DNA of 64,000 bases from Candidatus Kaiserbacteria bacterium CG10_big_fil_rev_8_21_14_0_10_59_10 (GCA_002773285.1 PFBM01000021.1:14312-78311); one strand, 5' to 3'. Numbered from the stretch's first letter, positions 2,721-61,501 are shown. A program made the numbers and translations. Notes: generated by a model from the letters alone, not told the origin.

Positions 2721-2981
2721 ATGAAAAAGATGTTTTCAATGCTCACTCCGCCTGCGATAGCGCTGATGCCGCTGCGGTGGTTTGCATGCGCAAGCTGCTA
2801 CTATCGCAGCAAGCAATGCGTGCCGACGCGCTGCCCGAATTGCGGCAGGGCGGAGCTGTCGGCCGAGGATGAGTACGCGGTCCAGGAGGGAGGACAGTTG
2901 GCACGGCGCCGCGGCGCCGTGCCTATTTCTTATGCGGATTGTGATTCGCGCAGGACTTGTCGCTGCAGCGCTCGGGGATAG
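2721..2981 (+). CDS. Small CxxC...CPNC zinc-ribbon-like protein (hypothetical). Its 3' end overlaps the topA 3' end on the opposite strand.
   Basis: Strong SD (GGGAGG) about 7 nt upstream of the ATG at 2721. Cys pairs CASC...CPNCG. Overlap with topA and low-complexity C-terminus lower the confidence. Confidence 0.3.
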   Translation: MKKMFSMLTPPAIALMPLRWFACASCYYRSKQCVPTRCPNCGRAELSAEDEYAVQEGGQLARRRGAVPISYADCDSRRTCRCSARG

Positions 2982-5076: not shown

Positions 5077-5170
5077 ATTGCGTGATGTGCGCGGCGCGCA
5101 GGCCGTAGGATTACCACACAACTATATATCATGCAAAGCGCGGCACATGTTCACCGCGGTGCGTTGCGCG

Positions 5171-46529: not shown

Positions 46530-47141
46530 TCAGCGCCTGTTCTCGAGCGCGCTTTTGAGTGTCTCGGCATCCGCATACTCCAACTCGCTGCCCGTCGAAA
46601 GGCCCCGCCCGAGCATCGTTATCTTCCATCCGTGCCGCGCCGCAAGCGCGGCAAGCGCGTCGCGGACATGAATGGCCGTGTAGTCGCCTTCTGGATTCGC
46701 CGGCAGGGCTAGAATGACCTCACGCAGGCCTGCCGATGCGCGCTCCTGTGCACGCGAGAGGAGTTCGCGCTCGCGCAGCGCCTTGGCCTTCTCGCTCGCA
46801 AGGGAGATGGTCCCTCCGAGCACGAAGTAATGGCCGCGATACGTGCCACTTCGCTCCAGGGCGGCGAGGTCCGCGTCGCTGGAGACCACGGCAAGCATCG
46901 ACGCGTCGCGTGCGGGATCGGCGCATAGCGCGCAGAGCCCCTTCGCGCCGGCGTGGTAGCGCATGCACGCATCGCACTGGTTGACGGTTGCGCCGAGTGC
47001 GCGTATCGAGTCGGCCAATTCGCGCCGCATAGAAGGCGAAGAGCGCAGCAAGAATTGCACGAACCGGTGCGCCTGGCGGGGTCCGATGCCGGGAAAGCGC
47101 GCAAACAACGTCGCTAACTTATCGAGCGCATCCATGTGCAT
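46530..47141 (-). CDS. recR: Recombination protein RecR
   Basis: LATLFARFPGIGPRQAHRFVQFLL (HhH); CDACMRY...C zinc finger; Toprim. Confidence 0.85.
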   Translation of the reverse strand: MHMDALDKLATLFARFPGIGPRQAHRFVQFLLRSSPSMRRELADSIRALGATVNQCDACMRYHAGAKGLCALCADPARDASMLAVVSSDADLAALERSGTYRGHYFVLGGTISLASEKAKALRERELLSRAQERASAGLREVILALPANPEGDYTAIHVRDALAALAARHGWKITMLGRGLSTGSELEYADAETLKSALENRR

Positions 47142-48517
47142 TAAAAGGGCTGCTCCACCTCCGCCTCTGGAGTAAAGTCGCCGAAATCGCTTTTCTCGAG
47201 TGAAATGAACGTGGTTTTCTCCTCATCAAAGCGAAGGTCAATTTTGCCAACCGGGCCGTTGCGATGCTTCTCGACGAGTATTTCCGCAATGCCCGTGCGT
47301 TCGCCTCCGTCCTGCATCTTATCCTCGCGATGAATGAACATGACGACATCGGCATCCTGCTCTATTGAGCCCGAGTCGCGCAGGTCGGAGAGGCGCGGCT
47401 TTCCGCGCCGCTGCTCGACGGCGCGCGACAGCTGCGAAAGTGCAAGGACCGGCACGTCCAGCTCGCGCGCCATCGCCTTAAGTGAACGGGAGATTTCCGT
47501 CACCTGCTGTACGAGCGAATCGGACGAGCGGGTGGTTGAAGGCGTAATGAGCTGCAAGTAATCCACGATGACGAGGCCGAGGCCCTTTTCCATTTTGAGC
47601 CGTCGTGCGACAGAGCGCATCGTGAGTACCGTTGAGGACGGCTTATCATCGATAAATATTGGCGCGTCGGAAAGCGTCGCAATGGCGTGCTGCAGACGCT
47701 CGTACTCATCATCTTTAGATATCTTGCCCGTGCGCAGCCGCCATGAATTGACGCGGGCCTCTGCGGCGAGCATGCGGTCAACCAGCTGCTGGGAACTCAT
47801 CTCGAGCGAGAAAATGCCCACCGCCGTGTTGTGTTTGGTCGCGCTCTGACGCGCGATGTCGAGCGCGAGGGCGGTTTTACCCATGGAAGGGCGGGCAGCG
47901 AGTATGACAAGGTCCGAGCGCTGCAGTCCTGCGAGCAAGTTGTCGAGCTGTGGGAAGCCCGTCGGTACGCCGCGTATCGAACCGTCATGCTGCTGCAGCT
48001 GCTCCAAACGCTCCCACGCGTCGCTGAGTGACTCCTTGATGGTAGAGAATGTCCGCAGGCTCGGCGCGTTCGCGACGGCGAACACCGCTTGCTGCGCCTC
48101 ATCAAGTATCTGTTCTATCTCTCTATCCTCGGCAAACCCGAGTTCGGCGATGCGCCCAGCGACGTCAATAAGAGAGCGCAGTACGTACTTCGACTGCACG
48201 TTCTCCGCATAGTGGCGCGCGCTACCCGGAGAAGCCGCGGTAGACACCAATTCAGACAGGTATGCGCCGCCGCCGATACCCGCAAGCTGCTTTCGTTCCT
48301 TCAGTTTGCCCGAAAGCGTCACGAGGTCGATCGGCTCGCCCTTGCCGTGGAGCGCGAGCATCGCGTCGAAGATAGTGCGGTGCTTGCCTGCATAGAATGA
48401 ATCAACGCCGACGACGTCCGCGACCTCGAACATCGCATTCGGGTTAAGCATGAGGGCGCCGAGGAGCGCGCGCTCCATATCAACATCCTGCGGTGGGACT
48501 CGAGCGCTTTGTGCCAT
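47141..48517 (-). CDS. dnaB: Replicative DNA helicase DnaB
   Basis: PQDVDMERALLGALMLNPNAMFEV N-domain; RecA-like core (ILAARPSMGKTALAL; Walker B VIVDYLQLI). Confidence 0.9.
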   Translation of the reverse strand: MAQSARVPPQDVDMERALLGALMLNPNAMFEVADVVGVDSFYAGKHRTIFDAMLALHGKGEPIDLVTLSGKLKERKQLAGIGGGAYLSELVSTAASPGSARHYAENVQSKYVLRSLIDVAGRIAELGFAEDREIEQILDEAQQAVFAVANAPSLRTFSTIKESLSDAWERLEQLQQHDGSIRGVPTGFPQLDNLLAGLQRSDLVILAARPSMGKTALALDIARQSATKHNTAVGIFSLEMSSQQLVDRMLAAEARVNSWRLRTGKISKDDEYERLQHAIATLSDAPIFIDDKPSSTVLTMRSVARRLKMEKGLGLVIVDYLQLITPSTTRSSDSLVQQVTEISRSLKAMARELDVPVLALSQLSRAVEQRRGKPRLSDLRDSGSIEQDADVVMFIHREDKMQDGGERTGIAEILVEKHRNGPVGKIDLRFDEEKTTFISLEKSDFGDFTPEAEVEQPF

Positions 48518-48614
48518 AGCACGATTCTATCACCAAGCGCCCCCACGCACATGCGCGGCACGCGCCGCCATGTGGGACTTACGTGTGGACAATGCGGCAC
48601 TCAGCCGTATAGAT

Positions 48615-48643
48615 TTGACAAGGGCGAAGGCGCCTGCTAAAAC
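48615..48643 (+). promoter_or_regulatory. Sigma-70-like promoter candidate (TTGACA-N17-TAAAAC) upstream of 48696 in the dnaB/48696 divergent region
   Basis: Read directly: ttgacaagggcgaaggcgcctgctaaaac; about 50 nt upstream of the ATG. Confidence 0.3.
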
Positions 48644-48695
48644 TACGTCACGCATAAAGACATTTGTCATAAAAACAGTCAAATCCACCATCGCT

Positions 48696-49718
48696 ATGCT
48701 TCAATTCACTACGCGCAGCGTCACGAAAGAGCTCCTTTCCTCTCTGCCTGAACGCTCACGGCGAGTCGTTGCAGAGCGTTTTGGCCTCGGCACGAGCGCG
48801 CGGCGGCGCACGCTGGAGGCAATTGGCAAGGAGTATGGGGTGACACGGGAGCGCATACGCCAGATAGAGAACCACTCCCTCGCAATGGTCCGAGAATCGG
48901 AGGCATACGGCCGCAACATGCACGCGATCGATGACCTCAAGCGCGCCGTGCATGAGCTCGGCAGCATCGTATCCGAGACGGCTGCTCTGGCCGCTCTCGC
49001 TACGTCGGAGGCCGAACGCAACCATGTGCTCTTTCTTCTCACGGTAGGGCACCACTTCGAGCACAGGCCGGATAATCCCGACTTTCACGCACGCTGGCAC
49101 GTGGACCCGGCGCTTGCCGAGGCGGTAGAGCGCTCGCTTTCGCGCTTGCATGAGGAGCTGAGCGCCGAGCGGCTCGTTCCAGAGAGTGATTTTGTGCAGC
49201 AGTTCGTACGCATTCTGAAAGAGGAGGGTGTGCGTGCACGTTCCGAAGAGGCGCCGTCTCGCTGGCTTGCCATTGCCAAGCGTATTGCGCGCAACCCGCT
49301 TGGTGAGTGGGGTAGGAGCGATTCGCCGCACGTGCGCATCAAGAACACGCGTGACTTTGCGTACCTCACACTGAAGCGTCACGGCTCACCCATGCACTTT
49401 ACCGAAGTGGCGAAGGGCATTCGCGAGCTGTTCGATAGGAACGCGCACCCCGCAACAACGCACAATGAACTTATTAAGGACAGCCGATTTGTGTTGGTCG
49501 GGCGCGGCCTGTACGCCCTTAAGGAATGGGGGTACGCGCCCGGCGTCGTGCGCGAGGTCATCAAGAACATCATCGCGGAAGAGGGTCCGCTGTTGCGCGA
49601 AGACATAATCGAGCGTGTGAAGCGCGAGCGCTACGTCAAAGACGCAACTATTGCCGTGAATCTCCAGAGCGACGCCTTCACGCGCGGCGCGGACGGCCGC
49701 TACAGCATCGCCTCATAG
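48696..49718 (+). CDS. Protein with an N-terminal sigma-70 region-4-like HTH domain fused to an uncharacterised C-terminal domain of about 270 aa
   Basis: LSSLPERSRRVVAERFGLGTSARRRTLEAIGKEYGVTRERIRQIENHSLAMVR is a close match to sigma-70 region 4.2. The rest is unassigned. Confidence 0.6.
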   Translation: MLQFTTRSVTKELLSSLPERSRRVVAERFGLGTSARRRTLEAIGKEYGVTRERIRQIENHSLAMVRESEAYGRNMHAIDDLKRAVHELGSIVSETAALAALATSEAERNHVLFLLTVGHHFEHRPDNPDFHARWHVDPALAEAVERSLSRLHEELSAERLVPESDFVQQFVRILKEEGVRARSEEAPSRWLAIAKRIARNPLGEWGRSDSPHVRIKNTRDFAYLTLKRHGSPMHFTEVAKGIRELFDRNAHPATTHNELIKDSRFVLVGRGLYALKEWGYAPGVVREVIKNIIAEEGPLLREDIIERVKRERYVKDATIAVNLQSDAFTRGADGRYSIAS

Positions 49719-49784: not shown

Positions 49785-51215
49785 ATGGCGGAAGAGGAAA
49801 AGCAATCCGTGCTGGACAGGATGATACAGTCGTTTACCGGCTGGGTGGGCAGGCGCATCGATGCCCTAGCGAAACCGGGCAAGCCGCACGGATATTTCGA
49901 CGCATGGGTCGAGTGGATAGGTGACTGGGGGGTCTCGCGCGGACTCGCGCTCATAGTCATCTATGTACTCCTTTTTTCGGCGGCGTCTTCACTGGTACCG
50001 GCTCTTCCCGTACTGGTGTGGAGCTGGATATTCGCAACGGCGCCGATATGGATACCCGTTGCCTCTATCATCGCCCTCACGCGCATTTGGATGTGGTACG
50101 TGAATACGCAGTACCTTGCAACGCGAAAACCAGTGCTGCTCGATATCCGCATGCCGCGCGAGGTCACAAAGTCGCCGCGGGCGATGGAAACAGCCCTTTC
50201 GCAGTTTTACACTACGTCGAATGAGACGACCTTTATCATGCGATGGTGGGAGGGGAAAATGCGGCCCTGGTTCTCCTTCGAGCTCGCGTCGTTCGGTGGC
50301 GACGTGCATTTCTACCTCTGGTGCTGGCGAGAATACAAGAACGTGCTCGAAACGCAATTGTATGCGCAGTATCCGGAGATCGAGATACACGAGGCCGAAG
50401 ATTACGCATCACGTTTTGTCTACGATCCATCCGTGTACGAAGTGTGGGGAAACCAGTATGCGTACGATAAGCGCTCCGATGGGCGCGACCCGGCGCCATA
50501 TCCGATCCGCTCGTACATAGACCTAGAACTCGACAAGGACCCGAAGGAAGAGTTCAAAGTAGACCCTCTTGCACAGGTTATCGAGGTCTTTAGCAGTTTG
50601 AAAGGAAGCGAGATGGCGTGGATGCAAATTCTCATACGCGCCAACAAGGAGAGCGAGACGGGTTTCCAGAAGCTGGTAAAAGCGGAGGTTGAGCACATAC
50701 GCAAGGAGGCATCCATACAGCCGACCGGGGAGCATCTGGAGCCGGGCGAAGAGGCGCGGCGCGGCTTTCCGCACCCGACGTGGCGGCAGACAGAGCAGAT
50801 ACGGGCTCTCGAGCGGCACGCAAGCAAGAAAACATTCACTGTCGGCATACGCACGCTCTATGCGGCAAAACACGAAGAGTTTAGCGGCACAACGCGCTCC
50901 GCCATACGGTGGGTATTTCTGCCATTCAATAGCGACCACCTAAACGGCCTACGCCCGGGAAAGTGGCACAACGACTTCGATTATCCGTGGCAGGATTTCC
51001 GCAATATCCGCTGGAGAAGGCAGGCGCGCCGCTTTTTCGATGCGTACCGCCGGCGTTCCTATTTCTACACGCCGTGGATAACACCCTTTTTTATTATGAG
51101 CACCGAGGCGCTCGCGACGATCTACCATCCGCCGAGCCGCACGATAGCCGCGCCCGGTTTGCAGCGCATTCCGTCCACAAAGGCCGAGCCGCCGCCGAAT
51201 TTGCCGCTTCGGTGA
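49785..51215 (+). CDS. Large membrane protein (two N-terminal TM helices + about 370-aa Trp/Tyr-rich cytoplasmic domain), hypothetical
   Basis: TM1 LALIVIYVLLFSAASSLV, TM2 PVLVWSWIFATAPIWIPVASIIAL, then a soluble domain with no recognised motifs. Confidence 0.5.
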   Translation: MAEEEKQSVLDRMIQSFTGWVGRRIDALAKPGKPHGYFDAWVEWIGDWGVSRGLALIVIYVLLFSAASSLVPALPVLVWSWIFATAPIWIPVASIIALTRIWMWYVNTQYLATRKPVLLDIRMPREVTKSPRAMETALSQFYTTSNETTFIMRWWEGKMRPWFSFELASFGGDVHFYLWCWREYKNVLETQLYAQYPEIEIHEAEDYASRFVYDPSVYEVWGNQYAYDKRSDGRDPAPYPIRSYIDLELDKDPKEEFKVDPLAQVIEVFSSLKGSEMAWMQILIRANKESETGFQKLVKAEVEHIRKEASIQPTGEHLEPGEEARRGFPHPTWRQTEQIRALERHASKKTFTVGIRTLYAAKHEEFSGTTRSAIRWVFLPFNSDHLNGLRPGKWHNDFDYPWQDFRNIRWRRQARRFFDAYRRRSYFYTPWITPFFIMSTEALATIYHPPSRTIAAPGLQRIPSTKAEPPPNLPLR

Positions 51216-51258
51216 TGTGCCGTATGCAACCCATGCGTATAAGCGCCCGCAGCTCTCT

Positions 51259-52302
51259 ATGAGTGAAGATAAGAAACTGGAAGAGGCATTCGAGGAGTAC
51301 ATGGACGGCACTCTTTCGCGCTGGTCGCGCGCGGAGGAGTATCTCAGCCGCAATGCGAACAGACGCACTGCCGCCATCCTTCTCGCCGTCTTCGTGTTCG
51401 CGCTTGCGCTGTACACATCCGTATTCTCGCCACCGCACGATTTTCCTACCGAGGCGATCGTCGATGTGCCGCAGGGCGCATCGGTGCGCGACATCGCAGA
51501 GACGCTCGAGCGCGAGAGGATCGTACGCTCCGCGCTGTGGTTCCGGCTACTCGTGCGCTTCACGGGCAACGAGCGGAGCTTGCACGCGGGAGAGTATTTG
51601 TTCGAGGAACCGACGGGCCTATGGGGCGTAGCGCAGGCGCTCTCCCACGGCCGCTACGGTATGGAACCGCGGCGCGTACGAATACCGGAGGGCGCGATGG
51701 TGCGCGATATAGCCGAGCTCTTGGACGAGGAGTTGTTGCGATTCGATAAAGAGCTCTTTACGGCGAAAGCGCTCCCGTACGAGGGCCGCCTCTTTCCGGA
51801 CACGTACTTTTTCCTGCCAAGCGCGAACGAAGATACTGTGCTTGAGGCACTGCGGCAAAACTTCGATGCACAGCTTGCTCAGCTTGAGGAAGAAATTGCG
51901 GCGTTCGGACGCCCGCTCGAGGAGGTGCTCATCATGGCATCGATACTGGAGCGCGAAGCGCGCGACCACGAGGACAGAAGGCGGATAGCCGGCGTCTTGT
52001 GGCGACGGCTTGACGAAGACATGCTGCTGCAGGTCGATGCCGTTTTTCTCTACTCGATCGGGCGCTCGACGTTCCAGCTCACATTGGAAGACCTGCGCTC
52101 CGATTCGCCCTACAACACGTATCGCTACAAAGGCCTCCCGCCCACGCCCATCGGCAGTCCGAGCCTCAGCTCCATACGTGCCGCCATCACCCCGATAGAC
52201 GGCGGATACTACTACTATCTTGCGGACAATACCGGCGTTACGCACTACAGCAGGACGTACGAAGAGCATCTGCGGAAAAAGAGATTGTATCTTGGAACAT
52301 AG
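51259..52302 (+). CDS. mltG: Endolytic murein transglycosylase MltG (YceG-like)
   Basis: N-terminal TM, LysM-like (PQGASVRDIAETL), YceG core (FPDTYFF...; ILEREAR; YNTYRYKGLPPTPIGSPS). Confidence 0.8.
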   Translation: MSEDKKLEEAFEEYMDGTLSRWSRAEEYLSRNANRRTAAILLAVFVFALALYTSVFSPPHDFPTEAIVDVPQGASVRDIAETLERERIVRSALWFRLLVRFTGNERSLHAGEYLFEEPTGLWGVAQALSHGRYGMEPRRVRIPEGAMVRDIAELLDEELLRFDKELFTAKALPYEGRLFPDTYFFLPSANEDTVLEALRQNFDAQLAQLEEEIAAFGRPLEEVLIMASILEREARDHEDRRRIAGVLWRRLDEDMLLQVDAVFLYSIGRSTFQLTLEDLRSDSPYNTYRYKGLPPTPIGSPSLSSIRAAITPIDGGYYYYLADNTGVTHYSRTYEEHLRKKRLYLGT

Positions 52303-52371
52303 CTACGAAGCGGGGTCTATGACCGATGCAGTGCTTGCATTCGAGGTCGGGGGACTACAAGCTACGGGTCT

Positions 52372-53418
52372 ATGCGCGTGTATGTAGGACTCTCCGGCGG
52401 CGTCGATTCGGCTGTGGCCGCCGCGCTCTTGAAAAAAGCGGGGCACACAGTAGTGGGTTGCTTTATCAAGATATGGCAGCCCGAGTTTATCGAGTGCGCA
52501 TGGCGAAAGGACCGCGTTGATGCCATGCGCGTGTGCGTCGCTCTCGGTATCCCGATGCGGGAACTCGATCTGTCGGAGGAGTACAAACGCGACATTGTCG
52601 GATACATGCGTGAGGCCTACGCGATGGGCTGTACGCCGAACCCCGATGCGTTGTGTAACCGCTCCATCAAATTTGGCGCGTTCGCAGCGTGGGCTCGGCG
52701 CGAGGGAGCGGAGTGCATTGCGACAGGCCACTATGCGCGAATACTGCAAGAAGGCGGACGGCATGCGCTCTACAGGGGAAAAGATTTGCAAAAAGACCAG
52801 TCGTATTTCTTATGGATGCTGCGCGAGAGAGACCTTGCGTTTGCGCAATTTCCGCTCGGCGGCATGCGAAAGAGCGATGTGCGTGCACTCGCGAAACGCT
52901 ATGCGCTACCAGTCGCCGATAAGCCCGACAGTCAGGGACTGTGCTTCGTGGGAGAGGTATCGATGCGCGATTTTTTGTCACGCTTCATCCGAGTAGAAAA
53001 GGGATCCGTGCTTGACGAATCCGGCCGTTCGATAGGGGCACATGACGGCGCGGCACTCTATACCATCGGGCAGCGCCACGGATTCCGCCTCTTCAGTAGA
53101 GAGGCGGCTTCTGTGCCCGCGTACGTCTCGAGTACGAGCGTATCCGACAATACGATAACGGTGACTAGGGACAGGGAACGGTGCATGACTACATGCGTGA
53201 CCATTCGCTCCATGCACTGGCTCGCAGGCGAGCCGCCTCGCTTCCTGCATGCGCATGCGCAGCTTCGCTACCGAGAGGCGCCGGTAGGAGTCGCGTGTAC
53301 CCGTGTGAATGATTCTGCGTTTCAGCTGCAGCTGGAGAAGCCGCGCATCGCCGCGCGTGGCCAATCGCTCGTCCTGTATGAGGGCGAGAGAATCCTAGGT
53401 GGAGGCATCATTGCATAG
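52372..53418 (+). CDS. mnmA: tRNA-specific 2-thiouridylase MnmA
   Basis: VYVGLSGGVDSAVAAALL (PP-loop SGGxDS); CNRSIKFGAF; catalytic Cys. Confidence 0.9.
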   Translation: MRVYVGLSGGVDSAVAAALLKKAGHTVVGCFIKIWQPEFIECAWRKDRVDAMRVCVALGIPMRELDLSEEYKRDIVGYMREAYAMGCTPNPDALCNRSIKFGAFAAWARREGAECIATGHYARILQEGGRHALYRGKDLQKDQSYFLWMLRERDLAFAQFPLGGMRKSDVRALAKRYALPVADKPDSQGLCFVGEVSMRDFLSRFIRVEKGSVLDESGRSIGAHDGAALYTIGQRHGFRLFSREAASVPAYVSSTSVSDNTITVTRDRERCMTTCVTIRSMHWLAGEPPRFLHAHAQLRYREAPVGVACTRVNDSAFQLQLEKPRIAARGQSLVLYEGERILGGGIIA

Positions 53419-53469
53419 CATCGCGAGACCTGTGGAAAGTACGCACCATATACATAGAGTGCGCGTATA

Positions 53470-53895
53470 ATGCGCGTAATGTCTGAAGTGTTTCTACGCG
53501 TCATGTGGCTCGCGCTTATCGCGGGTGCACTCGCATATGCCGCATATCTTTTTCTCGGAAGTACGATCCTTGCGCAAGCTGAAGATTCCTTGGCGCACGT
53601 CATCGTGCGCGACACCATCGAGGACGGCGTACACCGCCTTTCCGGCATGGTGATGGTGCCGTCGGACTGCCACGGCATCAGCGTGCGCGTCCACCAGAGT
53701 GACGCAAGCGAATACGCGCTTTCGATATCGACATGGATCGACCCGACGCGTGTATGCGAGCCGGAGCCGACGGCGCGCGCGTTCCGCGTCGTTACATTCG
53801 CGCCGCCCGTCGGCACCGCGTTCACCGCCACGCTCGACGGCAGTCCCATACCGCTTACCGTGTTGACGCACCACATTCGCTCCCATGACCGCTAA
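53470..53895 (+). CDS. Membrane-anchored hypothetical protein (N-terminal TM + about 110-aa external domain with a Cys pair)
   Basis: VMWLALIAGALAYAAYLFL TM. No family assigned. Confidence 0.4.
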   Translation: MRVMSEVFLRVMWLALIAGALAYAAYLFLGSTILAQAEDSLAHVIVRDTIEDGVHRLSGMVMVPSDCHGISVRVHQSDASEYALSISTWIDPTRVCEPEPTARAFRVVTFAPPVGTAFTATLDGSPIPLTVLTHHIRSHDR

Positions 53896-54715
53896 CGCCA
53901 ACATACTGAAGGCCGACGGAGAGAGGGAGCCATTCGACCCCCGCAAGCTGGATGCCTCGCTCGCGCGCGCAGGCGCCGCCAAAGACGCGCGCGAAAGGAT
54001 AATCGCCCGCATCGAGAGCGAACTCTACGAGGGCATGACGACCGAAGAGATATACCGCCACGCGTTCGAGTACCTGCGCCGCGACGAGGCGCCGCCTGTT
54101 GCCGCTCGCTACTCCATCAAACGTGCCGTATTCGCGCTCGGTCCGTCAGGGTTTCCGTTCGAGCAGTTTCTCGGCGAGGTGCTGCGGGCGCACGGCTGGG
54201 CTGTACGCACCGGCGCCGAACTGTACGGCCGATGCGCGCCGCACGAAGTGGACGTGCTCGCCGAGCGCGCGGGCAAGCGCGTCGGTATTGAGGCCAAGTT
54301 CCACAACGCGGCTTCCGGCAAGACCGACATCAAGGATGCGCTGTACGTCCGTGCGCGGTATGAGGATTTGGCGCGCGCGGCGGAGCAATCTTCGCGCGTG
54401 GATGACGGGTGGCTCGTCACCAACACGCGCTTTACCAAAAATGCCATCCGGTACGCGCAGTGCGCGAACCTTACGCTCATCGCATGGGAGTATCCAAAGG
54501 GGCGCGGGCTGCGCTCCCTCATCGAAGAAGGCGGCGTCCACCCGCTCACATGCCTCACGACGCTCACGGAGGGTGAGAAGCAGCGGCTCATGGATGCGAA
54601 GATAGTTCTTTGCAAGAATGTGCAGAGCGGCCATTTGCTGGAGGAATATGGCGTTAAGCCGGCGAGAATACCCTGCGTGCTCGACGAAGCGAAGCACTTA
54701 TGCACGGTCGGATAG
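53885..54715 (+). CDS. ATP-cone domain fused to an Mrr/restriction-endonuclease-like (PD-(D/E)XK) domain
   Basis: N-terminal ILKADGEREPFDPRKLDASLARAG...EEIYRHAFEYL (ATP-cone pattern). C-terminal EVDVLAERAGKRVGIEAKFHNAAS...GWLVTNTRFTKNAIRYAQ (Mrr_cat-like E..K and TN..FT motifs). Confidence 0.6.
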   Translation: MTANANILKADGEREPFDPRKLDASLARAGAAKDARERIIARIESELYEGMTTEEIYRHAFEYLRRDEAPPVAARYSIKRAVFALGPSGFPFEQFLGEVLRAHGWAVRTGAELYGRCAPHEVDVLAERAGKRVGIEAKFHNAASGKTDIKDALYVRARYEDLARAAEQSSRVDDGWLVTNTRFTKNAIRYAQCANLTLIAWEYPKGRGLRSLIEEGGVHPLTCLTTLTEGEKQRLMDAKIVLCKNVQSGHLLEEYGVKPARIPCVLDEAKHLCTVG

Positions 54716-54755
54716 TGCACGTTGACACCTCGATGGGCGCCGCTACAATAGGGGC

Positions 54756-55280
54756 ATGACGAACGATGTTCAATGGCAGCACGTATTATTAGGAGTGGCC
54801 GCCGGCATTCTTATCGGATCGCTTGCGACATGGCTCGCCCTCTCGGATAGGGCTGGCATTCCGCAGGCCTCCGGCGACATCCCGGATACATCCGAGGAAC
54901 AGGATCTCGACGGCGAGCAACAGGGTACATCAGGCGGCGCGCAACATTCGGGCTACAGCATAGCGGTGTCAGACCAACTCGCTGGCCGCTCCGTCACCGT
55001 ACAGAGTGTCACGCTCACCGAAACGGGCTGGATCGCGGTGCGCGAGCGCGCCGTGGAAGGACGGCCGGGCAACGTTCTCGGGGCGGCGCGGCGCGATGCC
55101 GGCGTGTACGAGGAGGTGAGCGTCACCTTACTGCGGGCGACCGAAGCGGGCGGCAGTTATGAGGTAGTCGTATACCGCGATGACGGCGACCGCGTATTTG
55201 ACATGAAGAAGGACACGCCGCTTGAAGACACCGCCAAGGTTTTCCGTGCGCTTTCGCCATTCAGCACGAACGAGGGCTGA
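54756..55280 (+). CDS. Secreted/membrane-anchored hypothetical protein (N-terminal TM, acidic linker, beta-rich domain)
   Basis: VLLGVAAGILIGSLATWLAL anchor. No family assigned. Confidence 0.45.
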   Translation: MTNDVQWQHVLLGVAAGILIGSLATWLALSDRAGIPQASGDIPDTSEEQDLDGEQQGTSGGAQHSGYSIAVSDQLAGRSVTVQSVTLTETGWIAVRERAVEGRPGNVLGAARRDAGVYEEVSVTLLRATEAGGSYEVVVYRDDGDRVFDMKKDTPLEDTAKVFRALSPFSTNEG

Positions 55281-55305
55281 CACCGCCGCGTACCAACGAT
55301 GCACC

Positions 55306-55818
55306 ATGCCCGAGCTGTTCGATACGGAGGCAGTAATTCTCGGGAAGCTTCTCCTAGCGACGGTCCTTGGTCTTCTCATCGGGACTGAGCGCGCGCTGAT
55401 GGCGCGCCAGGCCGCCGGCTCGCGCACCTTTGCGCTTGTGTCTCTCGGGTCATGCCTTTTTATCGTAGCCGGGTTGCACATTGACGTGCGGTATCTGGGT
55501 ATCGTGAACTTCGACCCCGCGCGCGTGCTCGCGGCCGTCGTGCAGGGAATCGGATTCATTGGCGCGGGCCTCATCATTTTTCGAGGCCATGCGCTGCATG
55601 GTGTCACTACCGCCGCGGGCCTCTGGGTGGCAGCGGCAGTAGGGGCTATGGTCGGTTTCGGCATGTACGCGATCGCCATATTCGCTGTTCTGCTTGCTCT
55701 CACCGTGCTCTTTGGGATGTGGTACGTGGAGAATAGGTTCAAGCGCATCCTGCTTGATAATCATCCTGAACAACCGGAAGAGCCGTACGAGCATCCGCTC
55801 GGCGGAATGAGGGAGTAA
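55306..55818 (+). CDS. MgtC/SapB-family membrane protein
   Basis: LLLATVLGLLIGTERALMARQAAGSRTFALVSLGSCLF (MgtC signature GxERE...K.AGxRT..LV..GS) plus further TMs. Confidence 0.7.
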   Translation: MPELFDTEAVILGKLLLATVLGLLIGTERALMARQAAGSRTFALVSLGSCLFIVAGLHIDVRYLGIVNFDPARVLAAVVQGIGFIGAGLIIFRGHALHGVTTAAGLWVAAAVGAMVGFGMYAIAIFAVLLALTVLFGMWYVENRFKRILLDNHPEQPEEPYEHPLGGMRE

Positions 55819-55868
55819 GTGCCGCTATGTGCACGGTGCGTAATGCGCGCTCATGATATAGTGGGCCT

Positions 55869-56684
55869 GTGGCGCAATATACAAAACGGTACAATCCGGC
55901 GCGTGGGGCTGACTGGAACTATGGCGGCAGGAATTGGCGCCTGTCGCGTTCCAAAATTGACCTTTTCTTGGAATGCCCGCGTTGCTTTTACCTGGACAAC
56001 AAACTCGGCACCGGCCGGCCGCGCGGCCCCGCCTTCACGCTGAACGTCGCGGTCGATGCCTTGTTTAAAAAAGAGTTCGACGTACACCGTATCGATGGGA
56101 CGGCGCACCCGCTTATGAAGGCCTACGGCGTGGACGCCGTGCCGTTCCGTCATCCGAAGATCGATATATGGCGGGAGAACTTCAAGGGCATTACCTGGCA
56201 AGATGCGGCGACCGGTTTTACGATCTCGGGGGCGGTCGACGACGTGTGGGTGACCCCTGAAGGAAAACTTATAGTTGTCGACTACAAAGCGACATCAAAG
56301 AACGGTACTATCGAATCCCTTGCCGATTCGTCATGGGAGGAGCAGTACAGGCGCCAGATGGGCGTGTACCAGTGGCTCCTGCAGAAAAACGGATTCAACG
56401 TGCATCCGACCGGCTACTTCGTCTACGCCAATGCCAGCTCGGATAAAGCGGCGTTCGACGGGCGGCTTGAATTTGAGATCACGCTTGTGCCGTGCGAAGG
56501 CGATACGTCGTGGATAGATAAAACGCTGCCGCTCATCAAGGCATGCCTCGACAGCGAGGAGATACCGCCTGTCGGAGAGAACTGCGAATTCTGCCCGTAC
56601 CGCGAGGCGGCGGGGAAGCACTTGCAGACACTCGCCACAAAAAACAGACCCGCGAGGAGGGACGCGCGTAGCACGGGCGTATGA
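55869..56684 (+). CDS. PD-(D/E)XK nuclease-family protein with Cys clusters (Cas4/AddB-like Fe-S nuclease fold)
   Basis: N-terminal ECPRCFYL, core GAVDDVWVTPEGKLIVVDYKATSK (D...DYK), QMGVYQWLL (QxxxY), C-terminal CEFCPY. Confidence 0.65.
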   Translation: MAQYTKRYNPARGADWNYGGRNWRLSRSKIDLFLECPRCFYLDNKLGTGRPRGPAFTLNVAVDALFKKEFDVHRIDGTAHPLMKAYGVDAVPFRHPKIDIWRENFKGITWQDAATGFTISGAVDDVWVTPEGKLIVVDYKATSKNGTIESLADSSWEEQYRRQMGVYQWLLQKNGFNVHPTGYFVYANASSDKAAFDGRLEFEITLVPCEGDTSWIDKTLPLIKACLDSEEIPPVGENCEFCPYREAAGKHLQTLATKNRPARRDARSTGV

Positions 56685-56962
56685 TGTCGCGCCCCTTTCG
56701 CGAGCGCGTACTTTCAGTCGTGCGCGGCATACGGCCGGGAAGGACGATGACGTATGGGGCGGTTGCCCGCGCCGCTGGCGCGCCGCATGCCGCGCGGGCC
56801 GTCGGCGCAATATTGAAAAACAATTATAATCCGGCAATTCCATGCCATCGCGTTATACGCGCGGACGGTTCCCTTGGCGGATACAACAGGGGCGCTGTGC
56901 GCAAGCGCGCGCTTCTTGCCGCAGAGGCGGCAGTGCCGCCGACACCGGATGCACACAGGTAG
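56681..56962 (+). CDS. ogt: Methylated-DNA--protein-cysteine methyltransferase, DNA-binding domain only (MGMT/Ogt-like)
   Basis: TMTYGAVARAAGAPHAARAVGAILKNNYNPAIPCHRVIRADGSLGGY (PCHRV active site). ATG overlaps the upstream stop. Confidence 0.8.
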   Translation: MMSRPFRERVLSVVRGIRPGRTMTYGAVARAAGAPHAARAVGAILKNNYNPAIPCHRVIRADGSLGGYNRGAVRKRALLAAEAAVPPTPDAHR

Positions 56963-57052
56963 CGGTTTCGGGCATTGAATTTTAGCGCAGTTTGCGTATA
57001 GTGTGCGCAGCTCTGTTCGAGCATCGCTCACCCTTAACTGGAGGACACTGCG

Positions 57053-57514
57053 TTGATGACGGTAGAACGTCCATATCGACGGACGACGACTATCACGCTC
57101 CGCGAGTGCGCCGAGCTGGGGGCGATTTTCTCGCCCATGGGGGAGGGCGATGCTTCTCGCCTGACCCAAGCAATAGCAACGCTGCTTCTTTCCGCGGGGT
57201 TTTGCATTACGCAAGACCCTGTAACACATGGGTATGACGTCACAATGCGACCATTCGGCACTGGCTTCGGATACACGTTCGTTGCCATTTTGTCTGAATC
57301 GCACTGCGCGATCCACACATACCCGGAGGAGCAGTATGGCGTCACGGTGGAGGTAGAATTCAACCTTTGCTACCTCAACTGCGACCACTCTGAGAAGATC
57401 GAAGAGGCACGCCTGCGCCTCATTGATCTATTCAGGCCGCGGTGCGTGGAGGAAGTAGAGCACTCTCGCAAAAGATACTTTACGCCGATCGCAGCATCAG
57501 TTGTAGCGGCGTAG
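57053..57514 (+). CDS. speH: S-adenosylmethionine decarboxylase proenzyme, small pyruvoyl-dependent type (SpeH-like)
   Basis: FVAILSESHCAIHTYPEEQYGVTVEVEFNLC matches the ESH(I/L)(S/T)IHTWPE self-cleavage/pyruvoyl motif. Confidence 0.65.
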   Translation: MMTVERPYRRTTTITLRECAELGAIFSPMGEGDASRLTQAIATLLLSAGFCITQDPVTHGYDVTMRPFGTGFGYTFVAILSESHCAIHTYPEEQYGVTVEVEFNLCYLNCDHSEKIEEARLRLIDLFRPRCVEEVEHSRKRYFTPIAASVVAA

Positions 57515-57519
57515 AGATA

Positions 57520-57550
57520 GGGCGGCACCTATCAGTGCCGCCCTTTGCTA
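57520..57550 (+). terminator. Rho-independent terminator candidate between speH-like and ung
   Basis: GGGCGGCAC-CTATCA-GTGCCGCCC hairpin followed by TTTGCTA. A TATACT box follows. Confidence 0.4.
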
Positions 57551-57562
57551 TATACTGCCGGC

Positions 57563-58234
57563 ATGCATGTAAAGCTGGAGCACTCGTGGAAGAGACAGCT
57601 TGAAGGCGAGTTCAAAAAGGACTATTTCAAGTCACTCGCGCAATTCGTACGCGAGGAATATACCCATGCCGTCGTGTATCCGCCGCCGAAGCACGTGTTC
57701 CGCTGCTTCGAACTCTGCCCGTTCGACGCGGTGAAGGTCGTCATCCTCGGGCAGGATCCCTACCATGGGGCTGGCCAGGCTAACGGCCTGTGCTTTGCCG
57801 TGGGCGAGGGTGTCGCACTGCCGCCTTCGCTGCAAAACATTTTCAAAGAAATGGAAAGCGACCTTGGGGCGAGTATGAAAAACAGAAGCGGGGACTTGGA
57901 GCGTTGGGCGCGACAGGGGGTTCTTCTCTTGAACGCCACGCTTACCGTTCGCAGCCGCATTGCCGGCTCCCATCAAGGCAGGGGATGGGAGCAGTTTACG
58001 GATTCCGCCATTCGCATCCTCTCCGAAAAGCGTGAGCACCTAGTTTTCATCCTGTGGGGAAACTACGCGAAAGCGAAAGGCATCCACATCGACCGTACGA
58101 AACATCTCGTCATAGAGTCCGCACACCCGTCGCCATTCTCGGCTGCGGGAGGATTCTTCGGCTCAAAGCCCTTCAGCCGAACCAATGCCTACCTCCTGGA
58201 ACACGGCAAAAAGCCGATCGACTGGCTCGCCTAG
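57563..58234 (+). CDS. ung: Uracil-DNA glycosylase (family 1)
   Basis: VKVVILGQDPYHGAGQANGLCFAV and HPSPFSA (family-1 UNG motifs). Start at internal Met MHVKLEH. Confidence 0.85.
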   Translation: MHVKLEHSWKRQLEGEFKKDYFKSLAQFVREEYTHAVVYPPPKHVFRCFELCPFDAVKVVILGQDPYHGAGQANGLCFAVGEGVALPPSLQNIFKEMESDLGASMKNRSGDLERWARQGVLLLNATLTVRSRIAGSHQGRGWEQFTDSAIRILSEKREHLVFILWGNYAKAKGIHIDRTKHLVIESAHPSPFSAAGGFFGSKPFSRTNAYLLEHGKKPIDWLA

Positions 58235-59503
58235 CTATAGGCGAAGCAGTCCCTTCAGTGCCACGGCCGAGGTGCCCGTATGCGGGCCTATCACTGCGAG
58301 GTTGAGCGCCCCGGTGTGGAACACATCCTTCGCAACACGGCGCACATCAGAGACGGTAACCGCATCGATACCCGCAAGTATCTCGGAAAGCGGCCGAACG
58401 CGACCGAAATGTATAAGAGAGGTCGCGGCATGCTCCGCAACCGCGTCTGTCGTCTCCAGAGACAGCGTGAGGGTGCCGCGCATATGCGCCTTGACCTTCT
58501 TCAACTCGGAATGCGGCACGTCAGTGCGCTTGATCTTGCGGAGCTCGCCGAGGATCGTTTGTACGGCTTTCTCAAGTTTCGCGTGCTCCACACCCGCCTG
58601 GACGACAAAATACCCGACGTCGGGATACTTATCCGTCCAGCCACGCACAAAGTACGCCAGTCCGCGCCGCTCACGCACTTCGAGGAACAGGCGGCTCGAC
58701 ATGCCGCTTCCGAGAATAGCGGAGAGCACCTCGAGCGCATACTCATCCGTATGGCCGTACGGATATGCAGGAACCCCAAGCATCAGCTGCGTTTGGTCGG
58801 TATGCTTTTCCTTGATGCGCACTCGAGGGCCCGCAGGTGGGGTTGGGTCCGAGGCCGCATGCAGGTGAGGTTCGCGCTTCTTCAGCCGCCCAAAATTGCG
58901 CGCGATATTCCTCAATACGCGCGCTTCATCGAAGGAGCCCGCGACGCAGACGACCGTATTCTGTGGTGTGTAGTGGCCGCGCATGTACGATTCGAATTGC
59001 GCACGCGTGAAGCGAAGTACATTCTCGCGCGTACCAATGATCGGACGACCGAGCGGATGGTCGCTTCCGAAGAAGAGCTCGTCGAACACATCATTGATCT
59101 TGCGCATGGGCATGTCCTCATACATGCCTATTTCCTGCACTATGGCGCCGCGTTCTTTTGTTATTTCGCGCGAAGGAAGCGTCGAATTGAGGAAGATATC
59201 ACTGATGACATCGAGCGCAGTATCGAAATATTGGCTCGACACTTTCGCATAGTACGCGGTCCTCTCTTTTGCGGTAAACGCATTGTAGCTCGCGCCTACG
59301 GAATCGAGCTCTTCGCTTATCGCTCGCGCACTCGGCCGCTTCGCCGTCCCTTTGAAAAACATGTGCTCAAGAAAGTGCGCAAGGCCGTTTTCTTTCTCTG
59401 TCTCATAGCGCGAACCGGTACCCGCCATCACCATCACCGTCGCCGTTTTGGTGCCCGCGAGCGGTATAAGGACGGCACGCAAGCCGTTCTTGAGCGTGTG
59501 CAT
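58235..59503 (-). CDS. M16-family zinc peptidase (insulinase-like)
   Basis: GLAHFLEHMFFKGT (HxxEH inverted zinc motif); two M16 halves. Start at internal Met MHTLKNG; the ORF-track start 59689 is an extension. Confidence 0.8.
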   Translation of the reverse strand: MHTLKNGLRAVLIPLAGTKTATVMVMAGTGSRYETEKENGLAHFLEHMFFKGTAKRPSARAISEELDSVGASYNAFTAKERTAYYAKVSSQYFDTALDVISDIFLNSTLPSREITKERGAIVQEIGMYEDMPMRKINDVFDELFFGSDHPLGRPIIGTRENVLRFTRAQFESYMRGHYTPQNTVVCVAGSFDEARVLRNIARNFGRLKKREPHLHAASDPTPPAGPRVRIKEKHTDQTQLMLGVPAYPYGHTDEYALEVLSAILGSGMSSRLFLEVRERRGLAYFVRGWTDKYPDVGYFVVQAGVEHAKLEKAVQTILGELRKIKRTDVPHSELKKVKAHMRGTLTLSLETTDAVAEHAATSLIHFGRVRPLSEILAGIDAVTVSDVRRVAKDVFHTGALNLAVIGPHTGTSAVALKGLLRL

Positions 59504-59599
59504 TCGGTACCTCACAGTGCCGCGCATGGTAGCGCGGGTACCGACTGAAGGCAATGAACGCGTTGAATTAGTGCGCATATGCGGATACAATTCGCCTTT

Positions 59600-61501
59600 A
59601 TGACGTACGACGAGTTGCGGAGGGCGTATATCGAATTTTTTAGGGCTCGGTGGCACGCGGAAATTCCATCGGCGTCTCTCGTGCCGCAAAATGATCCTAC
59701 GACGCTTTTCACCGGTAGCGGCATGCAGCCATTGGTGCCGTACCTTCTAGGAAAGAGCCACCCCGCCGGTACGCGGCTTGTGAATTCGCAAAAGTGCTTT
59801 CGCGCGGAGGATATCGACGAGGTGGGGGACAACCGTCACACGACTTTTTTTGAGATGCTCGGAAACTGGTCCCTAGGGGATTATTTCAAGAAGGAGCAGT
59901 TGCCATGGTTTTTTGAATTCTTAACGGATGTAGTAGGACTCGACCCGAGGAAGTTGTACGTCACGGCTTTCATCGGCAACGAGCAGAGAGGCGTTCCGCG
60001 CGACATTGAATCGGCGGAGATTTGGCGGGAACTGTTCGCAGCTAAGGGTATTGACGCGGATGTGGTTGAGATAGGGAGCGAGTCGGACGGGTATCGGCTT
60101 GGCATGCGCGGAGGCAGAATTTTCTACTACAACGCAAGAAAGAACTGGTGGAGTCGCGCGGGCGCACCCGAGAATATGCCTGCCGGGGAGCCGGGCGGCC
60201 CTGATTCGGAGGTGTTTTATGATTTCGGGACGTCTCACGATGCGAAGTATGGCGCTCAGTGCCACCCAAACTGCGATTGCGGCCGCTTCCTGGAAATAGG
60301 GAACTCCGTGTTCATGCAGTACATCAAAAAGGAGGATGGTTCGTTCGCGCTCTTGCCGAAACAGAACGTTGACTTCGGCGGCGGACTTGAACGTATCGCC
60401 GCTGCGGAGCAAGAGAATCCCGACGTGTTCGCGACGGAGCCGTTGCAGGACATTGTTGCGCTTCTCGCGAAGTTCGCGCGCAAGTCCTATGACGACGGCC
60501 GCTATACGCGCTCCTTCCGCATCATCGCCGACCACGTCCGAGCCGCGACGTTTATGATAGCGGACGGCGTTACGCCGTCTAACACCGAACAGGGGTACGT
60601 TCTGCGGCGGCTCCTACGCCGCGCCGCGCTTCACGCTAGTTCTCTCGGGCTTGGAGATAAGGATGCGGATGACAGCGCGCTTGTCCGCTCCGCCATTATC
60701 ACCATTGAGCAATATAAAGGAGCATATCCCGAGCTGTCCGGCGAGGAAGCGTACCAACGCATACGCGGCGAGATATGGCAGGAAGAGGTGCAGTTCGCCA
60801 AGACGCTGCAGAAGGGCATGCGCGAGTTTGAGAAGATAGCTGGCGAAGGGAGCATTTCCGGCGAAGCCGCGTTCACGCTCTTTTCCACCTACGGCTTTCC
60901 ATTTGAGATGACGAAGGAGCTTGCGCGCGAGCGCGGCCTGGACGTCGACGAAGAGGCGTTCAGGGAGAACATGCGGGCGCACAGCGAGCGTTCGCGAGCT
61001 GGAAGCGAACAGAAGTTCAAGGGCGGACTGGCTGACCGCTCCGACGATACGATCCGGCTTCACACCGCCCACCACCTTCTCTTAAAGGCGCTCCAGATCG
61101 TGCTCGGGACGCACGTCAAACAGCGAGGTTCGAACATAACGGGTGAGCGCTTGCGCATAGACTTCTCACACGGCGAGAAAATGACCGATGAGCAGAAGCG
61201 CGAGGTCGAGCATATCGTCAACGAAAAAATACTCGAAGGACTGCCTGTCGTACGCACCGAAATGCCGAAGAGCGAGGCCGAGCGGCTCGGCGCCGAGAGC
61301 GAATTCGGCGCCAAGTATCCGGAACGCGTGTCGGTATACTCCATCGGCCCGCTTGAGAGTGCGTTTTCGATCGAATTTTGCGGCGGCCCGCACGTGCAGA
61401 ATACGCGCGAATTGGGAAAGAGCGGCGTATTCAGAATACAGAAAGAAGAGGCGGTATCCGCCGGCGTACGCCGCATCAAGGCATCGCTCGTACGCGCGTA
61501 G
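59600..61501 (+). CDS. alaS: Alanyl-tRNA synthetase, short form (catalytic + tRNA-recognition + editing domains; no C-Ala domain)
   Basis: SLVPQNDPTTLFTGSGMQ...TTFFEMLGNWSLGDYFK (class II AlaS core). Editing HxxxH/CxxxH (HTAHHLL...CGGPHV). Ends about 240 aa short of typical AlaS. Confidence 0.85.
   Translation: MTYDELRRAYIEFFRARWHAEIPSASLVPQNDPTTLFTGSGMQPLVPYLLGKSHPAGTRLVNSQKCFRAEDIDEVGDNRHTTFFEMLGNWSLGDYFKKEQLPWFFEFLTDVVGLDPRKLYVTAFIGNEQRGVPRDIESAEIWRELFAAKGIDADVVEIGSESDGYRLGMRGGRIFYYNARKNWWSRAGAPENMPAGEPGGPDSEVFYDFGTSHDAKYGAQCHPNCDCGRFLEIGNSVFMQYIKKEDGSFALLPKQNVDFGGGLERIAAAEQENPDVFATEPLQDIVALLAKFARKSYDDGRYTRSFRIIADHVRAATFMIADGVTPSNTEQGYVLRRLLRRAALHASSLGLGDKDADDSALVRSAIITIEQYKGAYPELSGEEAYQRIRGEIWQEEVQFAKTLQKGMREFEKIAGEGSISGEAAFTLFSTYGFPFEMTKELARERGLDVDEEAFRENMRAHSERSRAGSEQKFKGGLADRSDDTIRLHTAHHLLLKALQIVLGTHVKQRGSNITGERLRIDFSHGEKMTDEQKREVEHIVNEKILEGLPVVRTEMPKSEAERLGAESEFGAKYPERVSVYSIGPLESAFSIEFCGGPHVQNTRELGKSGVFRIQKEEAVSAGVRRIKASLVRA

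Follow-up and report, generated by a model that had tools for sequence, protein, structure and literature searches.

An ATP-cone endonuclease gene in a conserved, probable DNA-maintenance segment of a Candidatus Kaiserbacteria chromosome

In a 64,000-nucleotide stretch of DNA from Candidatus Kaiserbacteria bacterium CG10_big_fil_rev_8_21_14_0_10_59_10 (GCA_002773285.1 PFBM01000021.1:14312-78311; hereafter the window, with positions counted from its first letter), we examined a block of genes that encodes an endonuclease with an ATP-cone domain, a RecB/Cas4-like nuclease, an Ogt/MGMT domain and the uracil-DNA glycosylase Ung. The original prediction, made from the sequence alone, had taken these genes for a possible compact defence or repair island. 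We conclude that the block, which is not an island, is probably a housekeeping DNA-maintenance segment, inherited vertically, in which the adenine (deoxy)nucleotide pool gates the activity of the first nuclease. Four genes with DNA-directed functions are intact and have conserved catalytic motifs; the ATP-cone protein among their products is 100% identical to a protein recorded for this same Kaiserbacteria bacterium. The four genes are the following.

53885-54715, plus strand: ATP-cone/PD-(D/E)XK/AF1548-like_C endonuclease of 276 amino acids, from Pfam and a match to PDB entry 1Y88 (ATP-cone, 53900-54124; nuclease, 54149-54481; helical C-terminal domain, 54482-54712)
55869-56684, plus strand: RecB/Cas4-like PD-(D/E)XK nuclease of 271 amino acids (Pfam PDDEXK_1, 57.2 bits, 3.1e-15)
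56681-56962, plus strand: stand-alone MGMT/Ogt C-terminal domain of 93 amino acids with PCHRV (Pfam DNA_binding_1; TIGR00589)
57545-58234, plus strand: family-1 uracil-DNA glycosylase, ung (NF003592, 317.9 bits, 3.8e-95)

Domains and invariant residues of the ATP-cone endonuclease

The fusion of an ATP-cone to an Mrr-type nuclease, as originally proposed for 53885-54715, was borne out by Pfam, in which both domains scored above their cut-offs (ATP-cone, PF03477, 40.9 bits versus 25.8, residues 6-80; Mrr_cat, 39.7 bits versus 21, residues 89-199). A third conserved domain, AF1548-like_C (PF22357), had been overlooked; it occupies residues ~200-276, and its name was taken from precomputed Pfam annotation of family members. 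PDB entry 1Y88 (AF1548 of Archaeoglobus fulgidus) matched residues 93-274, with E=2.9e-53 for the family profile and 2.6e-34 for the close alignment, and because this match spans both parts, the nuclease domain forms one conserved unit with the C-terminal helical domain. Residues E93, D123, E136 and K138 did not vary among 24 close sequences, nor among 33 more diverse ones that share only 35-55% identity with the window protein. AF1548 was predicted to be restriction-endonuclease-like, with D38, E51 and K53 as catalytic residues (Yooseph et al. 2007; PMC1821046), and these three align with D123, E136 and K138 of the window protein.

The ATP-cone was equally well preserved, K9, G12, E15 and K21 being invariant and the K-x-x-G-x-x-E-x-F...K-L motif being retained. 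A single-sequence search of the PDB with the ATP-cone returned only designed repeat proteins, which we regarded as noise, and the family profile was used instead; its N-terminal part matched NrdR ATP-cone chains at E~0.005 (residues 5-74) and a chain of the anaerobic reductase NrdD at 0.065. When 1.84 billion representatives were searched, 1199 clusters (at 50% identity) were recovered at E<1e-3 and 431 at E<1e-30; among 150 listed clusters of the 431, nearly all were ~270-300 amino acids long and matched over almost the full length. As judged from these sequences, the three-domain architecture of the family is fixed. The architecture is already annotated publicly ('ATP cone domain-containing protein'), and each component of the block belongs to a known family, but our literature search found no paper linking an ATP-cone to an Mrr or nuclease fusion and none on the function of AF1548-type ATP-cone nucleases.

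The window protein belongs to the uncharacterised AF1548 family. AF1548 itself shares with it the nuclease and C-terminal helical domains and the catalytic residues, but is a 199-amino-acid chain without an ATP-cone, in which the match begins at residue 23; it is a structural-genomics entry whose function was predicted only as 'restriction endonuclease'. Mrr type IV enzymes likewise have an Mrr_cat domain with an intact PD-(D/E)XK motif. In contrast to these enzymes, the window protein has an ATP-cone at its N-terminus and not a domain that reads modified DNA, its gene is core and syntenic and not patchy, and it matched no defence model beyond a marginal hit to ZorD (E=0.0086). Membership among the Mrr type IV restriction enzymes was rejected on the grounds of the ATP-cone N-terminus and of synteny in 80 of 80 loci and in most of 80 further loci. 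With the ATP-cones of NrdR and ribonucleotide reductase, the window protein has in common the N-terminal profile match and the motif given above, but here the output domain is a nuclease and not a zinc ribbon or a reductase. Furthermore, the residue following the first lysine of the ATP-cone is Arg or Lys in NrdR and ribonucleotide reductase, whereas it is an invariant Ala in the close clade of the window protein.

That the ATP-cone gates the nuclease according to nucleotide level, as was originally proposed, is a reasonable assumption, the ATP-cone motif and the catalytic residues both being invariant. One could also envisage that the protein is a nucleotide-responsive regulator resembling NrdR, in which the nuclease fold serves only to bind DNA. 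As in NrdR, an ATP-cone is joined to DNA-binding domains, and the gene is often the first of an array found in other phyla (described below). However, no member of the family departs from the catalytic E, D and ExK residues, which would not be expected if the role were purely one of DNA binding, and we consider such a regulator very unlikely.

Gene order and conservation in related genomes

In a scan of one genome per species, relatives of the ATP-cone protein turned up in 261 genomes, from which we examined 80 loci. Neighbours were located by tblastn anchoring, since greedy open reading frame (ORF) calling and graph clustering chose antisense ORFs in this DNA of 59% GC; none of the long antisense ORFs in the region had a Pfam match. 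In the window, the genes at 49785-58234 form a continuous plus-strand run in which gaps are short or the genes overlap, and in the flagged region all ORFs and motifs lie where the original prediction had put them. The neighbours referred to below are as follows.

49785-51215, plus strand: DUF8128-like protein (this and the next two from tblastn synteny and precomputed Pfam annotation of homologues)
51217-52302, plus strand: MltG/YceG
52372-53418, plus strand: MnmA
53470-53895, plus strand: small membrane-anchored protein of 141 amino acids, with no Pfam, NCBIfam or PADLOC match
54722-54749, plus strand: near-consensus sigma-70-like promoter, TTGACA-16-TACAAT (11/12 match)
54756-55280, plus strand: DUF7282 protein of 174 amino acids with an N-terminal membrane anchor (Pfam DUF7282, 1.1e-15)
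55306-55818, plus strand: MgtC-family membrane protein (Pfam MgtC, 6.1e-31)
57053-57514, plus strand: AdoMet-decarboxylase-like protein (Pfam AdoMet_dc, 35.8 bits)
58235-59689, minus strand: M16 peptidase (this and the next from tblastn synteny)
59579-61501, plus strand: alanyl-tRNA synthetase (AlaRS, alaS)

Downstream of the ATP-cone gene, MgtC was present in 78 of the 80 loci (~+950 nucleotides from that gene), the RecB-like nuclease in 76 (~+1400) and ogt in 58 (~+2200); alaS and the M16 peptidase gene were each found in 51, and ung, at a variable distance, in 35. Upstream lay mnmA (73/80), mltG (64/80) and the DUF8128-like gene (61/80), and a homologue of the small membrane-anchored protein, the gene for which overlaps the start of the ATP-cone gene by 11 nucleotides in the window, was detected in 39. 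Order and strand were the same for MgtC, the RecB-like nuclease, ogt, mnmA, mltG, alaS and ung. When only loci with enough flank were counted, the nuclease followed the ATP-cone gene in 77 of 80 close loci and MgtC did so in 79 of 82; this clustering is not due to chance. The clade as a whole has the order DUF8128, mltG, mnmA, small transmembrane protein, ATP-cone nuclease, (DUF7282), MgtC, RecB-like nuclease, ogt, (ung), peptidase, alaS, and some 100 related genomes retain the series mnmA - ATP-cone nuclease - (MgtC) - RecB-like nuclease - ogt - ung - alaS.

The membrane and secreted proteins reported as interleaved with the nucleases correspond to DUF7282 and MgtC in Pfam. MgtC, named in the original prediction only as interleaved, accompanies the ATP-cone gene more constantly than any other gene; its longest ORF runs from 55222, with the ATG at 55306 as the likely start. 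DUF7282 (1/80 close loci) and the AdoMet_dc-like gene (3/80) occupy variable slots in an otherwise fixed block, and the latter is a lineage-specific insert.

A metagenome scan added 80 loci, 61 of which were just 40-52% identical. Synteny extended, though more loosely, to deeper Parcubacteria, in which the order was sigma70 - DUF8128 - YceG - MnmA - ATP-cone nuclease - RecB-like nuclease - (ogt) - uracil-DNA glycosylase (UDG) - M13 peptidase - AlaRS, and in those with the closest homologues of the RecB-like nuclease, 3-22 nucleotides separated the two nuclease genes. Among distant loci with enough flank, ogt was retained in 14 of 40 and alaS in 15 of 27. In deep relatives, a small ORF occupies the slot of the small membrane-anchored protein (for example, L169, 4667-5074).

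The level of conservation was also that of a housekeeping gene. In close loci, selected on the ATP-cone protein, median identities were 69% for the ATP-cone nuclease, 70% for AlaRS, 74% for UNG and 55% for MnmA. We rejected the notion that 69% denotes exceptional conservation, because these loci were picked on that very protein; in loci selected via the RecB-like nuclease, the ATP-cone nuclease was 43-45% identical, like MnmA (40-45%), while the RecB-like nuclease and UNG were ~70% identical. It is these values of 43-45%, in loci chosen through the other nuclease, that lead us to call the conservation of the ATP-cone protein 'housekeeping-level'. The repair-type genes are thus linked in relatives and the flanking housekeeping genes are linked likewise, which indicates a core segment, frozen or operonic, and not an island. 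With respect to the original prediction, the two nuclease genes do co-occur in relatives, yet their linkage is no tighter than that to the tRNA-modification gene mnmA, and the genes turned out to be widely conserved and of housekeeping type, as would be expected if 'island' were a misnomer.

The ATP-cone nuclease, the RecB-like nuclease, Ogt and Ung might instead make up a single coupled repair operon, in which the ATP-cone nuclease would incise DNA when dATP/ATP permit gap filling. The genes are co-directional with short gaps, and the two nuclease genes of deep lineages are separated by only the 3-22 nucleotides mentioned above. Moreover, after rearrangement the gene directly downstream of the ATP-cone gene is still often a repair gene: in 50 distant loci it was PDDEXK_1 in 12, UDG-family in 6 and MGMT in 1, with MgtC and DUF7282 next in 6 each. 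However, mnmA, mltG and alaS are kept equally in the same loci, MgtC (with or without DUF7282) lies between the ATP-cone gene and the nuclease gene in Kaiserbacteria, a promoter-like site lies behind the ATP-cone gene in the window, and seven Bacteroidota/Chlamydiota loci have no such repair genes adjoining the ATP-cone gene. We consider the coupled operon rather unlikely. As for the promoter, its -10 hexamer ends 6 nucleotides upstream of the DUF7282 ATG, so that a transcript from it would be leaderless or near-leaderless. The match was not conserved in related loci and, for that reason, was set aside as weak evidence for operon boundaries. A search of 53000-58500 against Rfam returned no riboswitch or other RNA family, only sub-threshold noise.

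Several side observations concern the flanking genes. The 476-amino-acid product of 49785-51215 has no Pfam match of its own, and it is its syntenic homologues that carry DUF8128; the gene always lies between mltG and a gene for a protein with Sigma70_r4 and HARE-HTH (48450-49718 in the window). At 59579-59689, the convergent-looking M16 peptidase ORF shares ~110 nucleotides of its 5' end with the longest AlaRS ORF; one of the two start codons probably lies further in. A weak promoter-like match was seen at 59563-59591. Many third-party annotation (TPA) assemblies entitled 'uncultured Candidatus Saccharibacteria' (L001, L004, L009, L012 and others) have the Kaiserbacteria gene order and proteins that are 64-74% identical; these titles look generic and not taxonomic.

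The RecB/Cas4-like nuclease, ogt, ung and the question of defence

The product of 55869-56684 scored 57.2 bits with PDDEXK_1 against a cut-off of 22, and D124, D138-Y-K140 and Q163...Y167 were invariant in the alignment of its homologues, as were four cysteines, C36xxC39 and C239xxC242, which are spaced 2+2 at both ends of the domain. The family profile had no match among PDB sequences, and a fold search was used instead. A model built with AlphaFold2 (AF2) from 20 homologues (predicted local distance difference test, pLDDT, 76; predicted template modelling score, pTM, 0.74) gave as its best PDB folds in Foldseek, with a probability of ~1.0, AdnA/AdnB, Cas4 (4R5Q, 4IC1), AddB, Exo5, Dna2 and an Argonaute-associated Cas4-family protein. 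All of these are RecB-family nucleases with an iron-sulfur (Fe-S) cluster. On the strength of the modelled fold matches and the invariant residues, 'Cas4/AddB-like nuclease' is the right name for the class of fold and mechanism.

The designation as a Cas4/AddB-type Fe-S nuclease in the original prediction therefore holds for the PD-(D/E)XK domain, the CxxC pairs, the DYK motif and the fold, but not for the cysteine arrangement or the Cas4 cut-offs. The pattern in Cas4 and AddB is 1+3 (C...CxxC-x5-C), and the 2+2 cysteines here may bind an Fe-S cluster or, alternatively, Zn. The Cas4 models missed their cut-offs (TIGR00372, 33 versus 65 bits; PF01930, 18.9 versus 22.7). Compared with Cas4, AddB, AdnAB, Exo5 and Dna2, the protein has the same fold, shows the D...DxK...QxxxY motifs and likewise carries its four invariant cysteines at the domain ends, but these are arranged as CxxC...CxxC and it is accompanied by no cas genes, CRISPR array or helicase partner. 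Cas4 proper was rejected on the basis of the scores below cut-off, the lack of cas/CRISPR context and the different cysteine spacing.

The MGMT domain with PCHRV and the ung gene some 0.6 kb further on were both verified. The ogt product scored 100.3 bits with DNA_binding_1 (cut-off 27) and 80.6 with TIGR00589 (cut-off 46.4), and ung, which begins 583 nucleotides past ogt, exceeded the NF003592 cut-off of 162 bits. Both thus resemble Ogt/MGMT and family-1 Ung in lying above curated cut-offs, with PCHRV kept; the Ogt of the window differs in consisting of the C-terminal domain alone and in the probable coupling of its gene to that of a nuclease. The stop codon of the nuclease gene overlaps the ogt ATG in the sequence ATGA, which suggests that the two are translationally coupled. 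We infer that the RecB-like nuclease, ogt and ung constitute a DNA-repair module.

A further alternative is a compact anti-phage island in which an ATP-cone-gated Mrr-like nuclease and a solo Cas4-like nuclease attack invading DNA when infection perturbs the nucleotide pool. In its favour, type IV restriction enzymes use Mrr_cat as their catalytic domain, PADLOC Cas4 models matched the second nuclease at 1e-9 (sub-family level), and this nuclease matched PHROG exonuclease and Cas-associated families, which represent distant phage relatives. Ten predicted viral contigs in IMG/VR (L171-L180) also carry relatives of the second nuclease, at 30-57% identity and without the chromosomal neighbours. 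However, PADLOC found no system in the region, the only matches being the sub-family Cas4 models and the marginal ZorD nuclease-domain match, nor did it find a defence system or a cas gene among the 67 ORFs of the whole window. A search for CRISPR-like repeat arrays in the window was negative, in agreement with the original statement that neither an array nor cas genes are present. The GC content is flat (0.58-0.61 in the region versus 0.56-0.62 across the window), and the ATP-cone protein had no relative in 50,697 phage records (INPHARED), PHROGs or IMG/VR. Given also the unmet Cas4 cut-offs, the housekeeping-level conservation and the strict synteny with housekeeping flanks in ~100 genomes, the defence island is unsupported, membership in one was rejected, and we regard the anti-phage explanation as extremely improbable. 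Of the two terms in the original 'defence or repair island', it is thus defence that falls, while a repair cluster is partly supported, for the RecB-like nuclease, ogt and ung.

The remaining PADLOC matches in the window were explained away as belonging to UvrA (mad3/mad8), UvrB (PbeA, mREase_IV, DinG), TopA (DpdF), RelA/SpoT and RmuC; DinG, the sole other match to a Cas model among the 67 ORFs, is a match to the helicase domain of UvrB. Each of these five proteins thus gave strong but spurious matches (mad3/mad8, PbeA, mREase_IV, DpdF, PDC-S33, RTasRmuC) that might pass for defence genes; DnaB gave none. The rest of the window is ordinary chromosome of the Candidate Phyla Radiation (CPR), with TopA, RelA/SpoT, UvrB, UvrA, RmuC, DnaB, a sigma factor, MltG, MnmA, the M16 peptidase and AlaRS. 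The genes that lie outside the run described above are listed here.

1068-2633, minus strand: RelA/SpoT
2923-5121, minus strand: TopA
29695-31710: UvrB
33280-35874: UvrA
45088-46170: RmuC
47141-48517, minus strand: DnaB

Two perfect copies of an 18-nucleotide palindromic unit, CAAAGGTTAAACCTTTGG, were also noticed at 36443-36478, inside the ORF at 35884-37212.

Neighbours in other phyla and the proposed role

Bacteroidota have full-length relatives of the ATP-cone nuclease (37-45% identity), and plasmids of Pontibacter actiniarum and Criblamydia sequanensis also carry them. There the gene belongs to an array in the order ATP-cone nuclease, beta-CASP metallo-hydrolase, a 'thymidine phosphorylase family' protein of ~500 amino acids and a ribose-phosphate pyrophosphokinase-like (Prs-like) protein. 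The array was seen in Pontibacter, Criblamydia, a Cyclobacterium-type contig and one further metagenomic contig, and in the last two it is extended by PPK2 and a P-type ATPase, one of these two having Usp and PFK upstream as well. The partner genes of metagenome locus L145 are identical in kind and order, and L167 retains PPK2 and the P-type ATPase.

Array loci: L161, 1972-6597; L162, 5995-10602; L164, 8001-16186; L166, 8001-16172; L145, 8001-14400

The array also holds an unknown protein of ~228 amino acids, and Usp and PFK lie close by in two loci. The beta-CASP partner matched the PDB ribonuclease TTHA0252 at 1.6e-70. The phosphorylase partner matched PDB entries 4GA5/4GA4 at 2.5e-102, as against ~1e-39 for true thymidine phosphorylases; we take 4GA4-4GA6 to be the AMP phosphorylase of Thermococcus. 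Since Criblamydia and the Cyclobacterium-type contig, which belong to different phyla, have partner genes that are 67-73% identical, the array has moved horizontally and may represent few independent events; it looks like a horizontally moving island for nucleotide recycling or energy stress. Literature searches for this gene set in Bacteroidota/Chlamydiota and for salvage in Patescibacteria returned nothing relevant or specific.

Cation transport is a further recurring feature of these neighbourhoods. In eleven loci, a P-type ATPase gene was found no more than ~8 kb from the ATP-cone gene. In a Flavobacterium locus (L165, 808-4282), the ATPase gene overlaps the stop of the ATP-cone gene, with HMBD and RND genes nearby, and a metagenomic locus (L105, 5372-10936) reads P-type ATPase - ATP-cone nuclease - MgtC/DUF4010 - PPK2. 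MgtC, the most constant partner in Kaiserbacteria, thus recurs in an unrelated context. In other loci, CDF and ZIP transporter genes were seen near the ATP-cone nuclease.

The neighbours in Bacteroidota and Chlamydiota suggest a nucleotide-pool-gated nuclease that acts in nucleic-acid turnover. One could go further and suppose that the ATP-cone protein is mainly a nuclease of nucleic-acid turnover or nucleotide salvage, its repair neighbours in Kaiserbacteria reflecting inherited order without functional meaning. The arrays of Pontibacter, Criblamydia, Cyclobacterium and the metagenomes, with their beta-CASP RNase, AMP-phosphorylase-type, Prs-like, PPK2 and P-type ATPase genes, argue for this, as does the better match of the phosphorylase partner to 4GA5; an HD 5'-deoxynucleotidase-like gene also directly follows the ATP-cone gene in 2 of the 50 distant loci. 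CPR bacteria are widely regarded as lacking de novo nucleotide synthesis. On the other hand, the array is plasmid-borne, horizontally spread and perhaps the product of few independent events, and none of the partner genes (beta-CASP, AMP-phosphorylase-type, Prs-like, PPK2, P-type ATPase) is present in the 64-kb window. We hold this explanation to be unlikely.

Returning to the DNA-maintenance segment that we favour, a number of results weigh against it. A functional operon and frozen synteny would both leave the gene order conserved, and distant loci with enough flank retain mnmA (23/36) at least as well as the RecB-like nuclease (17/42). Outside Paceibacteria, the ATP-cone nuclease adjoins RNase, AMP-phosphorylase-type, Prs-like, PPK2 and P-type ATPase genes, and no such repair gene stands beside it in the seven Bacteroidota/Chlamydiota loci with gene tables. 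The promoter match right behind the ATP-cone gene hints that, in this genome, this gene may not share a transcript with MgtC, the nuclease and ogt. The AF2 model of the ATP-cone protein, built with 24 close homologues, was poor (pLDDT 55), especially outside the ATP-cone; it was not used for a fold search, and the sequence match to 1Y88 stands in for it. Nucleotide binding by the family is a prediction, as are its substrate (DNA or RNA) and the direction in which it is regulated.

Within the DNA-maintenance segment, the ATP-cone protein would act as a PD-(D/E)XK endonuclease of the AF1548 family, its C-terminal helical domain presumably binding nucleic acid. By analogy with ribonucleotide reductase and NrdR, the binding of ATP or dATP at the ATP-cone may shift the oligomeric state of the enzyme, which would be switched on or off with the (deoxy)adenylate pool. 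Its target would most likely be cellular or imported DNA, in maintenance or turnover, and not phage DNA. The RecB-like nuclease may resect or process DNA ends or flaps, as do the Fe-S RecB-family nucleases of similar fold, Ogt would remove O6-alkyl groups from guanine by suicide transfer to the Cys of PCHRV, and Ung would excise uracil.

These results remove the defence-island lead as false and describe a conserved DNA-maintenance block in small-genome CPR bacteria, which have a minimal repair repertoire. They also draw attention to an ATP-cone endonuclease family of at least 431 clusters at 50% identity, with a solved domain structure and an uncharacterised function. A bolder proposal, which we offer as speculative and on balance quite unlikely, is that the AF1548-type ATP-cone nuclease is a widely distributed enzyme that opens nucleic-acid breakdown according to the ATP/dATP state. 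If so, it would feed recycling by beta-CASP RNase, AMP phosphorylase, Prs-like protein and PPK2 in Bacteroidota and Chlamydiota, whereas in Paceibacteria, which rely on scavenged nucleotides, its gene would have been fixed in the core genome; the constant pairing with MgtC and P-type cation ATPases would link the turnover of nucleic acids to Mg/ATP homeostasis. The dATP/ATP ratio is classically sensed by ATP-cones, and a nuclease under ATP-cone control would give this sensor a new output; such control could account for the way in which organisms that lack de novo nucleotide synthesis adjust DNA/RNA cleavage to nucleotide supply.

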